DNA of 64,000 bases from Escherichia coli O157:H7 (GTDB lineage: Bacteria; Pseudomonadota; Gammaproteobacteria; Enterobacterales; Enterobacteriaceae). Below the pieces are notes generated by a model, which saw nothing but the letters and a program-made list of their open reading frames with translations, ran no database searches and had not been told where the DNA came from. The position numbers and the translations under genes are program-made. Positions 2,982 through 56,419 of this stretch are shown one piece after another (positions within the stretch are counted from its first letter, which is position 1; each line of letters opens with the position of its first letter). The stretch lies in assembly GCF_013167455.1 (NCBI RefSeq), contig NZ_CP038328.1. The stretch is one strand, 5' to 3'.

Positions 2982-5261
2982 ATGGATGACCAGTTAAAAC
3001 AAAGTGCACTTGATTTCCATGAATTTCCAGTTCCAGGGAAAATCCAGGTTTCTCCAACCAAGCCTCTGGCAACGCAGCGCGATCTGGCGCTGGCCTACTC
3101 ACCAGGCGTTGCCGCACCTTGTCTTGAAATCGAAAAAGACCCGTTAAAAGCCTACAAATATACCGCGCGCGGTAACCTGGTGGCGGTGATCTCTAACGGT
3201 ACGGCGGTGCTGGGGTTAGGCAACATTGGCGCGCTGGCAGGCAAACCGGTGATGGAAGGCAAGGGCGTTCTGTTTAAGAAATTCGCTGGGATTGATGTAT
3301 TTGACATTGAAGTTGATGAACTCGACCCGGACAAATTTATTGAAGTCGTCGCTGCGCTCGAACCGACCTTCGGCGGCATCAACCTCGAAGACATTAAAGC
3401 GCCAGAATGTTTCTATATTGAACAGAAACTGCGCGAGCGGATGAATATTCCGGTATTCCACGACGATCAGCACGGCACGGCAATTATCAGCACTGCCGCC
3501 ATCCTCAACGGCTTGCGCGTGGTGGAGAAAAACATCTCTGACGTGCGTATGGTGGTTTCCGGCGCGGGTGCTGCAGCAATCGCCTGTATGAACCTGCTGG
3601 TAGCGTTGGGTCTGCAAAAACATAACATCGTGGTTTGCGATTCAAAAGGCGTTATCTATCAGGGCCGTGAGCCAAACATGGCGGAAACCAAAGCCGCATA
3701 TGCGGTAGTGGATGACGGCAAACGTACCCTCGATGATGTGATTGAAGGCGCAGATATTTTCCTCGGCTGTTCCGGCCCGAAAGTGCTGACCCAGGAAATG
3801 GTGAAGAAAATGGCTCGAGCGCCAATGATCCTGGCGCTGGCGAACCCGGAACCGGAAATTCTGCCGCCGCTGGCGAAAGAAGTGCGTCCGGATGCCATCA
3901 TCTGTACCGGCCGTTCCGACTACCCGAACCAGGTGAACAACGTCCTTTGCTTCCCGTTCATCTTCCGTGGCGCGCTGGACGTTGGCGCAACCGCCATCAA
4001 CGAAGAGATGAAACTGGCGGCGGTACGCGCGATTGCAGAACTGGCCCATGCGGAACAGAGTGAAGTGGTGGCTTCAGCGTATGGCGATCAGGATCTGAGC
4101 TTTGGCCCTGAATACATCATTCCAAAACCGTTTGATCCGCGTCTGATAGTCAAGATTGCTCCTGCGGTCGCGAAAGCGGCGATGGAGTCGGGCGTGGCGA
4201 CGCGTCCGATTGCTGATTTCGACGTCTACATCGACAAGCTGACTGAGTTCGTTTACAAAACCAACCTGTTTATGAAGCCGATTTTCTCCCAGGCTCGCAA
4301 AGCGCCGAAGCGCGTAGTTCTGCCGGAAGGGGAAGAGGCGCGCGTTCTGCATGCCACTCAGGAACTGGTAACGCTGGGACTGGCGAAACCGATCCTTATC
4401 GGTCGTCCGAACGTGATCGAAATGCGCATTCAGAAACTGGGCTTGCAGATCAAAGCGGGCGTTGATTTTGAGATCGTCAATAACGAATCCGATCCGCGCT
4501 TTAAAGAGTACTGGACCGAATACTTCCAGATCATGAAGCGTCGCGGCGTCACTCAGGAACAGGCGCAGCGGGCGCTGATCAGTAACCCGACAGTGATCGG
4601 CGCGATCATGGTTCAGCGTGGCGAAGCCGATGCAATGATTTGCGGTACGGTGGGTGATTATCATGAACATTTTAGCGTGGTGAAAAATGTCTTTGGTTAT
4701 CGCGATGGCGTTCACACCGCAGGTGCAATGAACGCGCTGCTGCTGCCGAGTGGTAACACCTTTATTGCCGATACCTACGTCAATGACGAACCAGACGCAG
4801 AAGAGCTGGCGGAGATCACCTTGATGGCGGCAGAAACTGTCCGTCGTTTCGGTATTGAACCGCGCGTTGCTCTGTTGTCGCACTCCAACTTTGGTTCTTC
4901 TGACTGCCCGTCGTCGAGCAAAATGCGTCAGGCGCTGGAACTGGTCAGGGAACGTGCGCCAGAACTGATGATTGATGGTGAAATGCACGGCGATGCAGCG
5001 CTGGTGGAAGCGATTCGCAACGACCGTATGCCGGACAGCCCTTTGAAAGGTTCTGCCAATATTCTGGTGATGCCGAACATGGAAGCTGCCCGCATTAGTT
5101 ACAACTTACTGCGCGTTTCCAGCTCGGAAGGTGTGACTGTCGGTCCGGTGCTGATGGGCGTGGCGAAACCGGTTCACGTGTTAACGCCGATCGCATCGGT
5201 GCGTCGTATCGTCAACATGGTGGCGCTGGCCGTGGTTGAAGCGCAAACCCAACCGCTGTAA
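2982..5261 (+). CDS. maeB: NADP-dependent malic enzyme (malic enzyme domain fused to phosphotransacetylase-like domain)
   Basis: 759-aa [26 protein letters not shown]...; length and sequence match MaeB as recalled. Confidence 0.95.
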
Positions 5262-5553
5262 TTCTTTTTTAACTCTCACGCTTACCCTGAATATTCAGGG
5301 TAAGCGGTTTAGCTGCAATATATTAGTAAAGCTTATTACTGAGTTTGCGAATAATAAAAAAAGCAGTATATAAAATATCTCGATATTATTTTATTTATAT
5401 TCATGCGTCGCATATGAAAGTTTATTCATAACAGTAAATATCTCTCCATTCTTAGTGATCTACCTCACCTTTTAAACGCGCTTGCCGAATTTTGTTATTT
5501 ACTCTGACGAAAAATTGTCACGATACACGAAAGTTTTTCACAGGCGGCGACTC

Positions 5554-17979: not shown

Positions 17980-18639
17980 ATGCCAGCTTTAGATTTGATT
18001 CGACCGTCGGTAACCGCCATGCGGGTGATTGCCTCCGTTAACGCCGATTTTGCGCGTGAACTGAAATTGCCGCCACATATTCGTAGCCTCGGTCTGATTT
18101 CTGCCGATTCTGACGACGTAACCTACATTGCGGCTGACGAAGCGACCAAACAAGCGATGGTAGAAGTGGTATATGGTCGCTCGCTGTATGCGGGCGCGGC
18201 ACACGGCCCGTCACCGACTGCCGGTGAGGTGCTGATTATGCTTGGTGGGCCAAACCCGGCGGAAGTGCGTGCCGGTCTGGATGCGATGGTTGCGCATATT
18301 GAAAATGGCGCTGCTTTCCAGTGGGCTAATGATGCGCAAGATACGGCATTCCTGGCACATGTAGTTTCGCGTACCGGTTCTTATCTCTCATCAACCGCCG
18401 GGATCACGCTTGGCGATCCGATGGCGTATCTGGTGGCACCGCCGCTGGAAGCGACCTACGGCATTGATGCAGCGTTGAAATCTGCCGACGTACAGCTGGT
18501 GACCTATGTCCCGCCACCGTCTGAAACTAACTACTCGGCAGCATTTTTAACCGGTAGCCAGGCAGCGTGTAAAGCGGCCTGTAACGCCTTTACCGATGCA
18601 GTGCTGGAAATCGCGCGTAATCCAATCCAGCGTGCGTAA
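17980..18639 (+). CDS. eutL: EutL, tandem-BMC-domain shell protein
   Basis: 219-aa ORF, operon position. Confidence 0.9.
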
Positions 18640-18651
18640 CGGAGGTTGCCA

Positions 18652-19152
18652 ATGATCAATGCACTGGGATTGCTGGAAGTGGACGGCATGGTCGCCGCGA
18701 TAGATGCAGCGGATGCCATGCTCAAAGCAGCTAACGTTCGTCTGCTCAGTCACGAAGTGCTTGACCCAGGTCGCTTAACGCTGGTGGTGGAAGGCGATCT
18801 GGCGGCGTGTCGTGCTGCGCTGGACGCAGGTTGTGCTGCCGCGATGCGTACCGGGCGTGTCATCAGCCGTAAGGAGATCGGTCGGCCAGACGATGACACC
18901 CAGTGGCTGGTTACTGGCTTTAACCGCCAGCCGAAGCAACCCGTAAAGGAACCCGACGCGCCAGTTATCGTCGCGGAATCTGCTGACGAGTTGTTGGCGC
19001 TGTTAACATCAGTACGTCAGGGAGTGACGGCAGGAGAAGTGGCTGCCCACTTTGGCTGGCCGCTGGAAAAAGCCAGAAATGCGCTCGAACAGCTCTTTTC
19101 TGCTGGGACGTTACGTAAACGCAGTAGTCGTTATCGTCTCAAGCCCCATTAA
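18652..19152 (+). CDS. eutK: EutK, BMC shell protein with C-terminal nucleic-acid-binding-like domain
   Basis: ORF track begins at a TTG (18646); ATG at 18652 gives 166 aa (MINALGLLEVDGMVAAIDAADAMLKAA...), SD ACGGAGG upstream. Confidence 0.85.
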   Translation: MINALGLLEVDGMVAAIDAADAMLKAANVRLLSHEVLDPGRLTLVVEGDLAACRAALDAGCAAAMRTGRVISRKEIGRPDDDTQWLVTGFNRQPKQPVKEPDAPVIVAESADELLALLTSVRQGVTAGEVAAHFGWPLEKARNALEQLFSAGTLRKRSSRYRLKPH

Positions 19153-19197
19153 CCTGTCGGAGGTGCCGGGTGTCCTACAACACCCGGCATTAACATC

Positions 19198-20250
19198 ATG
19201 AAAAAGACCCGTACAGCCAATTTGCACCATCTTTATCATGAACCCTTACCCGAAAACCTGAAGCTCACGCCGAAGGTCGAAGTGGATAATGTTCATCAAC
19301 GACAGACAACGGATGTCTATGAACATGCTTTAACGATTACCGCCTGGCAGCAGATTTACGATCAGCTGCATCCGGGCAAGTTTCATGGTGAATTTACGGA
19401 AATTCTACTCGATGATATTCAGGTTTTTCGTGAATACACCGGTCTGGCGCTGCGTCAGTCGTGTCTGGTCTGGCCGAACTCGTTCTGGTTTGGCATTCCG
19501 GCGACGCGCGGTGAGCAGGGATTTATCGGTTCGCAATGTCTGGGAAGCGCAGAAATAGCGACGCGCCCTGGTGGAACCGAGTTTGAATTAAGTACGCCGG
19601 ACGATTACACGATCCTGGGCGTAGTGCTTTCTGAAGATGTCATCACCCGTCAGGCTAACTTTTTGCATAATCCGGATCGGGTATTACATATGTTGCGTAG
19701 CCAGTCGGCGCTGGAAGTGAAAGAGCAGCATAAAGCCGCGCTGTGGGGCTTTGTCCAACAGGCGCTGGCGACGTTTTGCGAGAACCCGGAAAATCTCCAT
19801 CAGCCTGCAGTGCGAAAAGTGCTGGGGGATAATTTGCTAATGGCGATGGGGGCGATGCTGGAAGAAGCGCAGCCAATGGTGACGGCGGAAAGCATCAGTC
19901 ATCAGAGTTACCGTCGGTTGCTTTCCCGCGCCCGTGAATATGTGCTGGAAAACATGTCCGAACCGGTGACGGTGCTGGACTTGTGTAATCAACTGCATGT
20001 CAGCCGCCGCACGCTACAAAACGCGTTTCACGCTATTTTAGGAATTGGCCCGAACGCGTGGCTGAAACGCATTCGCCTGAACGCCGTACGCCGCGAACTG
20101 ATAAGCCCGTGGTCGCAAAGCACAACGGTAAAAGACGCCGCCATGCAGTGGGGATTCTGGCATCTGGGGCAATTTGCCACGGATTACCAGCAGCTGTTTG
20201 CCGAGAAGCCGTCGTTGACGTTGCATCAGCGGATGCGGGAATGGGGGTGA
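19198..20250 (+). CDS. eutR: EutR, AraC-family activator of the eut operon
   Basis: 350-aa ORF with C-terminal AraC-type HTH; last gene of operon. Confidence 0.9.
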
Positions 20251-39661: not shown

Positions 39662-39689
39662 AAAAAAGCACCTGAAAAGGTGCTTTTTT
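39662..39689 (-). terminator. cysK terminator (symmetric hairpin with A/T runs)
   Basis: AAAAAAGCACC-TGAAAA-GGTGCTTTTTT located 25 nt 3' of cysK stop on - strand. Confidence 0.8.
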
Positions 39690-47593: not shown

Positions 47594-47621
47594 CAAAAAA
47601 GCGCCTTTAGGGCGCTTTTTT
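47594..47621 (-). terminator. rho-independent terminator of the valU-valX-valY-lysV operon (symmetric, A-run/T-run flanked)
   Basis: AAAAAAGCGCC-TTTAG-GGCGCTTTTTT hairpin immediately 3' of lysV. Confidence 0.75.
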
Positions 47622-49697: not shown

Positions 49698-50240
49698 TTA
49701 GCGCATAAAAGATAAACGGCAGGAGAGATACCCCTGCCGTTTTTTATTTATCCGGTGCGCCGTAAAACCCCGTCCTTCAGGGCGGGGATATAAGGCGCGG
49801 TTTTCCACCTGACCAGGTGTTTGCTGTTGTTCAATGTATTGGCGGATGACGGATATTGGCGCACCTCCGCAGCTACTGGCAAAATAGCCAGGACTCCACA
49901 AAACGCCTTTGTAGTAATACCTGACTGCAATATCTGGTCGATCTCGTCGCAGTAACCTACCCGATACGCCTTTGAGGCTGTTTACCAGACTGGATATCGC
50001 CAGTTTGGGAGGATAGTTAGTTAACAAATGGACGTGATCTGGTTCGCCATCCATTTCAACCAGTTCAGCTTCAAAATCAGCACATACATTTGAAAAGTAA
50101 GTGCGTAGTTTTTCTGTCGCGTCATAGTCAAAAATCTGACGTCGGTATCTGGTGACAAAGAACAGATGAACATGCATCAGGAAAACACAATGCCTTCCCC
50201 GTCGGATATCGGTTTCTTTATTCATAGACCAAAGTATCAT
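49698..50240 (-). CDS. tnpA: IS200/IS605-family Y1 (HUH) transposase TnpA, with unusual C-terminal extension
   Basis: ORF contains DIRRGRHCVFLMHVHLFFVTRYRRQIF...DHVHLL (HuH motif)...SPGYFASSCGG...IRQYIEQQQ; ORF continues ~40 codons beyond the usual end, through the gltX terminator. Start may be ATG 50225 (MNKETD...). Confidence 0.75.
   Translation of the reverse strand: MILWSMNKETDIRRGRHCVFLMHVHLFFVTRYRRQIFDYDATEKLRTYFSNVCADFEAELVEMDGEPDHVHLLTNYPPKLAISSLVNSLKGVSGRLLRRDRPDIAVRYYYKGVLWSPGYFASSCGGAPISVIRQYIEQQQTPGQVENRALYPRPEGRGFTAHRINKKRQGYLSCRLSFMR
49718..49747 (+). terminator. gltX rho-independent terminator
   Basis: CGGCAGG-AGAGATACC-CCTGCCG followed by TTTTTT, 20 nt after gltX stop. Confidence 0.75.
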
Positions 50241-56370: not shown

Positions 56371-56377
56371 CAGGCGT

Positions 56378-56408
56378 AAAAAAGCCGGGGAATTATCCCC
56401 GGCTTTTT
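56378..56408. terminator. bidirectional rho-independent terminator between convergent pdeA and nupC
   Basis: AAAAAAGCCGGGG-AATTAT-CCCCGGCTTTTTT perfect hairpin flanked by A- and T-runs. Confidence 0.8.
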
Positions 56409-56419
56409 TATGTATGGTC

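Follow-up and report, generated by a model that had tools for sequence, protein, structure and literature searches.

A hairpin between a distal Shine–Dalgarno sequence and the start codon of eutR as a candidate split ribosome-binding site in the ethanolamine utilisation operon

The eutK–eutR junction and its two hairpins

The stretch of DNA analysed here, called the window, comprises 64,000 nucleotides of Escherichia coli O157:H7, and the region of interest within it is the eut operon, where eutK is followed by eutR (Table 1). This region matches strain PV15-279 at 100% identity over 501 bp, and the 501-bp query was present in 5,419 of the 5,426 complete E. coli genomes, at a median of one place per genome. 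In at least one E. coli genome, NZ_AP027748.1, the match was limited to query bases 378–501 and a tyrosine recombinase/integrase is annotated beside eutR, which suggests a mobile-element insertion or a truncation within eutR. The identities of eutK and eutR were taken from the RefSeq annotation of a 100%-identical O157:H7 genome, and the 5′ end of eutK (18646) from a mechanical open reading frame (ORF) finder. The hemF gene lies on the minus strand, convergent with eutR. The eutK stop (19150) and the eutR ATG (19198) are in the same frame in E. coli, 48 nt apart, a frame relation that is not kept in Salmonella, and the protein database contains fusion products of a BMC domain with HTH_18 under the name EutR (P0057, P0078).

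Table 1. Features of the eutK–eutR junction, in window positions. The hairpin clade is the set of 32 distinct sequences described in the text; SD, Shine–Dalgarno sequence.
Feature	Position	Strand	Remarks
eutK	18646–19152	+	BMC shell protein with the EutK_C nucleic-acid-binding C-terminal domain
eutK stop codon TAA	19150–19152	+	exactly 6 nt 5′ of GGAG in 32/32 hairpin-clade sequences
Distal SD, GGAGG	19159–19165 (as GGAGGUG in E. coli)	+	overlaps the first two H1 stem bases
Hairpin H1	19164–19189	+	5′ arm 19164–19173, loop 19174–19179, 3′ arm 19180–19189
7-codon ORF MSYNTRH	19170–19193	+	GTG start, TAA stop; inside the hairpin; part of Escherichia only
A/U-rich single-stranded spacer	19190–19197	+	no SD-like sequence
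Hairpin H2	19196–19241	+	UCAUGA.AAAGA (19196–19207, holds AUG) with UCUUU.A.UCAUGA (19230–19241)
eutR start codon ATG	19198–19200	+	N-terminus aligns with all homologues; GTG in one lineage
eutR	19198–20250	+	AraC-type activator of the eut operon

Ethanolamine utilisation has EutR as its master activator, and in EHEC and Salmonella the protein also ties virulence gene expression to ethanolamine in the gut. The amount of EutR is critical, as the protein vies with EutBC for AdoCbl and sustains a positive feedback loop. Two layers of eutR control have been described so far, transcription from P1 and P2 and the effect of the small RNA (sRNA) MavR on mRNA stability. A review of the eut operon, the MavR–eutR study and recent papers on bacterial microcompartments (BMC) describe only P1 and P2, the binding of MavR in the 3′ coding region, and a nucleic-acid-binding domain of EutK that is left unexplained (PMC5821096, PMC8565329, PMC12487888); no prior description of an eutR hairpin was found in the searched literature.

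The original prediction had placed a perfect hairpin with a 9-bp stem between GGAGG (19159–19163) and the eutR ATG, positions that are right in every case. The hairpin, H1, is real, and its stem is one pair longer than claimed: 10 Watson–Crick pairs without a mismatch, GC-rich, with the arms TGCCGGGTG and CACCCGGCA enclosing the 6-nt loop CCUACA. Two extra G·U pairs are possible in E. coli, G19162/G19163 with U19190/U19191, using the last two G of the Shine–Dalgarno (SD) sequence. Structure prediction, which had been proposed as a check, gave −18.6 kcal/mol for H1 folded alone (z = −5.17), and 0 of 200 shuffles were as stable. Perfect hairpins of at least 10 bp number 7 in the 64-kb window, against 0.63 ± 0.66 in dinucleotide shuffles, and five of the other six resemble A/T-flanked terminators. 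H1 differs from these, as had been predicted from its lack of a U-tract: a terminator scan found 0 sites in 18400–19600, and none of the species compared has a U-run after the stem, whichever strand is read (the 3′ flank in E. coli is AUUAACAUC). H1 is neither chance nor a terminator.

Among the other perfect hairpins, five with stems of 10–15 bp carry A-runs and T-runs (36707–36734, 39662–39689, 47595–47621, 49714–49742 and 56377–56410) and look like bidirectional intrinsic terminators. The remaining one, of 12 bp at 5279–5306 (CGCTTACCCTGA-ATAT-TCAGGGTAAGCG), begins 18 nt past the stop of a 759-aa ORF (2982–5261), which we take to be maeB; it has no clear U-run and lies upstream of an AT-rich region that presumably holds the eut P1 promoter.

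No Rfam family was matched at its gathering threshold; the best overlapping matches reached 16.4 bits (threshold 39) and 15.5 bits (threshold 37), both at E-values above 5. In a test for dispersed repeats, a covariance model built from the 13-sequence alignment described below matched the 64-kb window once only, at 19152–19203, and it gave one match per locus in the comparison set. No sigma-70-like site was found in 18400–19600, so that no P2 promoter was located there, and eutR and eutK are absent from the supplements of two Salmonella transcription start site papers. In an E. coli Term-seq/Rho supplement (PMC7815308, supplement file 2), the sole eutR-related site is antisense, at K-12 coordinate 2554640 (+), inside eutR and not at the hairpin; it is presumably read-through from the convergent hemF.

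A second hairpin, H2, covers the start codon. Its 3′ arm consists of eutR codons 11–15 (CAT CTT TAT CAT GAA), its fold is worth −9.7 kcal/mol (z = −4.3), and H1 and H2 together, folded as 19150–19250, reach −32.4 kcal/mol (z = −4.4). In all ensemble-folding windows, from 130 to 600 nt, the AUG was paired with a probability of about 1.0, and H2 is therefore predicted to sequester the eutR AUG. A long-range pairing of CUGUCGG with CCGUACAG, taken from the first minimum free energy (MFE) fold, was rejected, since it is not conserved and the Klebsiella codons differ there.

Conservation and geometry across EutR lineages

The comparison set comprised 63 EutR loci from one-genome-per-species contigs and 10 more reached via intermediate EutR homologues. 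The hairpin clade within it has 32 distinct sequences from at least 8 genera, with EutR 77–100% identical to the query. The layout of SD, hairpin and ATG was found in Escherichia, Salmonella, Citrobacter, Klebsiella, Pseudocitrobacter, Phytobacter, Intestinirhabdus, a bin labelled Pluralibacter and several further bins. The common order is TAA, 6 nt, GGAG(G), a gap of 0–1 nt, the hairpin, an A/U-rich spacer of 9–10 nt and the ATG.

In the covariance-model alignment of the 32 sequences, 96.2% of the cells were paired, both sides had changed in 7 of the 11 pairs, and 48 cells were compensatory. The covariation score was 0.426 against 0.204 in shuffles, none of the 500 shuffles reaching the observed value, and slid controls paired in only 30–51% of cells. 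An alignment made by MAFFT without knowledge of the structure, using the 13 sequences of equal length, gave the same picture: 96.5% of cells paired, four pairs changed on both sides, a score of 0.49 that lies above all 500 shuffles, and 26–42% pairing in slid controls. Across the clade the stems have 10–14 bp, are GC-rich and are worth −17 to −25 kcal/mol, and the basal pairs had a probability of at least 0.8 in 30 of the 32 ensemble folds. In the plain MAFFT alignment (A1) the arms were out of register, and the RNAalifold consensus derived from it was therefore spurious; A1 was superseded by base-anchored counting, by the alignment of the same-length subset (A3) and by the covariance-model alignment (A5).

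Change is unevenly spread along the stem. With pairs numbered from the foot of the stem upwards, the five basal ones, GCCGG/CCGGC, show almost no variation, and pairs 6–11 are freely replaced yet still paired, pair 7 occurring as UA, CG, GU or AU. As judged from the alignments, the basal conservation exceeds what the structure needs and could reflect sequence-specific recognition by a factor. Since G·U cells outnumber A·C cells 37 to 9, the selected structure is plus-strand RNA rather than DNA or the antisense strand. The structure of H1 is certainly real and under selection, and as an RNA structure it is conserved across gut bacteria.

The original prediction had also held that eutR has no conventional SD at normal spacing, and the energies bear this out. 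The distal GGAGG forms a duplex of −8.9 kcal/mol with the 16S 3′ end, whereas the spacer scores +1.1 kcal/mol in E. coli and −1.1 kcal/mol on average over the hairpin clade. A partial AAGG (−3.5 to −5.5 kcal/mol) occurs in 4 of the 32 sequences, just 2–3 nt from the ATG; no usable SD at canonical spacing is present in the clade. The distal SD itself is highly constrained, with GGAG invariant in 32/32 sequences and the fifth G kept in 30/32; at the four-fold sites of eutR, mean pairwise identity is 0.56 and 1 of 28 sites is near-invariant. From the end of GGAGG to the ATG there are 34 nt in E. coli, 34–38 nt in the other 30 short-hairpin sequences and 86 nt in Intestinirhabdus, all beyond the 15 nt of primary sequence that we used to define a split ribosome-binding site (RBS). 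The gap from the SD to the stem base is 0–1 nt, and the spacer from the conserved CCGGC to the ATG is 9–10 nt, in all 32 sequences, so that gap and spacer sum to an effective SD–AUG distance of 9–11 nt throughout, inside the functional range of 5–13 nt. Spacer positions −11 to −7 drift at a neutral-like identity of 0.32–0.55, while the length is constant. It is the geometry, rather than the sequence, that is conserved.

Intestinirhabdus alba (L028, 1410–1500) offers a natural experiment in this respect, as its hairpin has lengthened from 24 to about 77 nt (−50 kcal/mol), to all appearance through a second palindrome inserted into the loop, and the geometry is preserved, with the abutting GGAGG and a 9-nt spacer retained.

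H2 is conserved at synonymous sites. Its arm codons (AAA AAG ... CAT CTT TAT CAT GAA) are synonymously invariant in 7 of 7 cases, against 8 of 130 elsewhere in codons 2–200 (Fisher p = 4e-8), a count over 30 sequences that leaves out L065 and L073, excluded post hoc. In these two, the H2 helix is lost and several arm positions have changed together. No island of synonymous conservation was found in the last 62 codons of eutK, in an alignment that was partly out of register.

In every EutR lineage outside the clade and its close relatives, namely Buttiauxella, Hafnia, Morganella, Dickeya, Pectobacterium, Brenneria, Lonsdalea and others, the region from −18 to −2 scores −5.5 to −17.3 kcal/mol against the anti-SD, and these outgroups carry GGAGG or AGGAG at most 18 nt upstream of the start codon. 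A strong SD is present somewhere in every EutR lineage, and the hairpin clade has one only on the far side of the hairpin; the structure is conserved there, and relatives without the hairpin have a contiguous RBS. Between the two groups stand Yokenella (L030) and two metagenomic lineages (L070, L071), with EutR 71–78% identical, which keep a hairpin at the H1 position and have an SD-like GGAGG, GGUGGAG or AGGAG on its 3′ side, 3–6 nt from the ATG. In L070 the proximal SD is present and the distal SD is lost. This pattern fits a requirement for one SD, on either side of the hairpin. Since the hairpin persists in these three lineages without bridging, H1 may also have a further or older role, such as RNA stability, insulation or factor binding.

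Several observations concern the annotated start of eutR. In three Citrobacter loci (L012, L016 and L029, ~1470–1500), an in-frame ATG or GTG in the hairpin loop, together with the loss of the TAA before the spacer, would allow an 8-residue N-terminal extension of EutR, MKLPA[A/S]KV-MKKK...; the same loci bear a partial AAGG 2–3 nt 5′ of the ATG. In L065 (701–722), the 357-aa eutR product P0013 has its start codon, a TTG, within the hairpin loop, 13 nt past the distal SD, and a 359-aa E. coli form of EutR exists (P0001), the start codon of which was not found in the O157 sequence. Gene callers are starting eutR too early, misled by the distant SD. Just 5′ of the ATG, sequences outside Escherichia (L005–L038, positions 1494–1500) have GATC (AGATCATG), a Dam site overlapping positions −4 to −1, where E. 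coli has CATC.

A proposed split initiation region and its alternatives

We propose that the eutK–eutR junction of the eut mRNA would act as a structured split translation initiation region. A split RBS of the type of phage T4 genes 25 and 38 is the reading that we favour, at slightly better than an even chance. The distal SD is probably the one used for eutR, and H1 would loop out the 24–27 nt between it and the AUG, so that a 30S subunit bound to the SD would find the start codon about 10 nt away; on this basis, H1 would enhance initiation rather than block it. The AUG lies at the base of the weaker, AU-rich H2, and initiation would therefore probably proceed through standby binding anchored at the SD and subsequent breathing of H2; an exposed SD next to a weakly helical AUG fits this mode of initiation. 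The outcome would be a modest, tightly set synthesis of the autoregulated activator EutR, from P1 read-through and P2 transcripts alike, and a coupling of this synthesis to translation termination at the end of eutK may exist as well. The original prediction had suggested that the stem might bring GGAGG close to the ATG, and this part of it is favoured by the comparative evidence, namely the invariant SD, the covarying stem, the fixed spacer length, the lack of a proximal SD and the normal SD of hairpin-free relatives, and it stands, as we infer, with the same somewhat better than even chance.

Several points count against the proposal. An effective spacing of about 10 nt, with the width of the helix added, is at the long end of the range of E. 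coli ribosomes; the T4 hairpins are much weaker than H1, the accommodation of which on the 30S platform has to be assumed; and the hairpins of L030, L070 and L071, with an SD on their 3′ side, mean that SD bridging may be secondary to some other purpose of H1. The strong conservation of the basal pairs and, in E. coli, the possible G·U pairing of the last two G of the SD with U19190/U19191 also weigh against it, as would a P2 start downstream of GGAGG, from which the transcripts would be without an SD.

The likeliest of the alternatives, though itself unlikely, is a negative element or an operator, formed by H1 alone or together with H2. It would hold EutR synthesis down by setting the SD apart from the AUG and sequestering the AUG, or it would bind a factor acting in trans, be it a protein (the EutK C-terminal domain or CsrA, for instance) or an sRNA, that gates the translation of eutR. 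The near-complete pairing of the AUG in H2, the conservation of H2 at synonymous sites and the near-invariance of GCCGG/CCGGC beyond structural need would all suit such an element, and since an ordinary strong SD serves the relatives that have no hairpin, the structured form probably reduces output. Low expression, however, could be had from a weak SD, without a covarying stem of 10–14 bp. A CsrA site was considered and rejected, as the region holds a single GGA motif and no second one, and the eutR site matches the SELEX consensus of CsrA poorly. EutK draws attention in this context because it carries the unexplained nucleic-acid-binding domain (PMC5821096, PMC12487888) and because EutK_C was present in every hairpin-bearing locus examined; this co-occurrence is confounded by phylogeny, however, and Buttiauxella has EutK_C yet no such hairpin. 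The specific version in which H1 and H2 would form a translational operator for a trans-acting factor, with the EutK C-terminal domain as the candidate, is to our mind improbable. If it were true, the supply of a shell protein would feed back on the synthesis of the operon activator EutR.

Only a shade less probable than the general operator reading, and likewise unlikely, is an intercistronic element for mRNA stability or processing, the position of which relative to GGAGG would be incidental. H1 might then be a barrier to 3′ exonucleases for the eutS–K message or a 5′ stem-loop shielding eutR from RNase E. Its high stability, GC-richness, intergenic position just after a stop codon and lack of a U-tract are what such an element would have, the eutR mRNA is sensitive to RNase E (PMC8565329), and the hairpins of L030, L070 and L071 persist despite a proximal SD. 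The reading leaves unexplained, however, why GGAG is invariant and abuts the stem, why the spacer is fixed at 9–10 nt and why none of the 32 sequences has another SD; moreover, a 3′ barrier placed after the SD would cut eutR off from its sole SD.

Control at the level of transcription is very improbable. What speaks for an attenuator, pause site or terminator limiting P1 read-through into eutR is that a stable hairpin stands at a gene boundary, before the last gene of the operon, which is needed in small amounts. However, no species has a U-run behind the stem, on one strand or the other (AUUAACAUC, UUAAAAGAUC, AUAAAAGAUC), the search for terminators was empty, and autoinduction needs read-through into eutR (PMC5821096, PMC8565329). 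The original prediction had also raised a modulation of readthrough, and this part of it found no support, given that neither strand has a U-tract.

Still more doubtful is a short upstream ORF that would couple translation, with ribosomes melting the hairpin and re-initiating at eutR. The spacing in E. coli is ideal, the GTG lying 6 nt past GGAGG and the stop ending 4 nt 5′ of the eutR ATG, but the ORF is missing from six lineages. It is absent in E. whittamii, no ATG, GTG or TTG occurs between the SD and the ATG in Salmonella, C. amalonaticus, C. sedlakii and C. youngae ATCC 29220, and the GTG of E. coli is buried in the 5′ arm of a stem of −18.6 kcal/mol.

The least probable reading, to which we attach almost no weight, takes H1 for a palindrome acting in DNA (as protein operator or cruciform), for a member of a repeat family or for a chance inverted repeat: H1 is indeed a perfect palindrome at the DNA level, but its arms are replaced by compensatory pairs instead of being conserved in sequence, the plus-strand G·U pairs favoured 37 to 9 would turn into A·C mismatches on the opposite strand, as they would in a symmetric operator, the covariance model finds a single copy in the window, and the shuffle statistics (0/200 for the fold; 7 against 0.63 perfect hairpins) exclude chance.

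Returning to the split RBS, the arrangement of SD, hairpin and AUG together with the hairpin over the start codon would add a translational layer to the control of eutR. It would also bear on experimental design, as deletions of eutK without a scar, or constructs of eutR that begin at the ATG, would lose the sole SD. The eutR junction would be a testable translational layer on a virulence-relevant regulator, and it introduces no new principle.

Comparison with known split and standby initiation sites

To our knowledge, the split design of SD, hairpin and AUG has so far been known mainly from two phage T4 genes, and the eutR junction would be a rare chromosomal counterpart. In both T4 genes, a hairpin between the SD and the AUG shortens the spacing, in gene 38 from 22 to 5 nt and in gene 25 from 27 to 11 nt (PMC3014915, PMC7297116), and mutations that destabilise the hairpin lower translation (PMC3014915 section 29, PMC7297116). 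Close T-even phages share the split RBS structure, and distant phages have a contiguous RBS (PMC3014915, PMC7297116).

The closest parallel is the split or "accommodated" RBS of T4 gene 25 (Nivinskas et al. 1999; Malys and Nivinskas 2009; reviewed in PMC3014915). The T4 26–25 junction, read directly, is AAGAGG-C-[CUCAAAG AGUU CUUUGAG]-UUACUAUA-AUG, that is, an SD, 1 nt, a hairpin, 8 nt and the AUG, which the geometry of eutR matches almost nucleotide for nucleotide. The distance falls from 27 to 11 nt in T4 and would fall from 34–38 to 9–11 nt in eutR, and neither has an SD at a normal distance. Both junctions are intercistronic, with the structure in close relatives and a contiguous RBS in distant ones. 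The differences lie in the stem, which in T4 has 7 bp and is AU-rich, whereas that of eutR has 10–14 bp, is GC-rich and is untranslated; the 56-nt T4 initiation region folds no better than shuffles (MFE −9.6 kcal/mol, z = −1.0). Because the T4 hairpin is sited inside the coding sequence of gene 26, upstream ribosomes melt it, whereas H1, being untranslated intercistronic RNA, should not be melted by ribosomes stopping at the TAA at 19150. In addition, eutR has a second hairpin over the AUG, and the role of the T4 hairpin rests on mutational and DMS evidence, whereas that proposed for eutR comes from sequence comparison.

The RBS of T4 gene 38 (Gold 1988; PMC3014915, PMC7297116), compared by description, is alike in that a hairpin collapses a non-functional 22 nt to a functional spacing, as proposed for eutR. 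It differs in that the spacing is collapsed to 5 nt instead of about 10 and in that it belongs to a phage late gene.

Among cellular mRNAs, the split ribosomal binding site of E. coli thrS (Sacerdot et al. 1998, cited in PMC7297116) shows that an RBS interrupted by a stable hairpin is tolerated on the 30S platform. In thrS, however, the SD is at a normal distance from the AUG and the hairpin splits it from an upstream single-stranded enhancer; that hairpin is also a regulatory operator that binds ThrRS, unlike the eutR hairpin, which has no known ligand.

Finally, the ribosome standby sites described by de Smit and van Duin, and those of the MS2 coat gene and tisB (PMC5934652), resemble the arrangement proposed here in that a 30S subunit waits on an accessible segment until the start-codon helix opens, which would fit the combination of the distal SD and H2 at eutR. 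The classical sites differ in being unstructured flanks without SD pairing across a hairpin.
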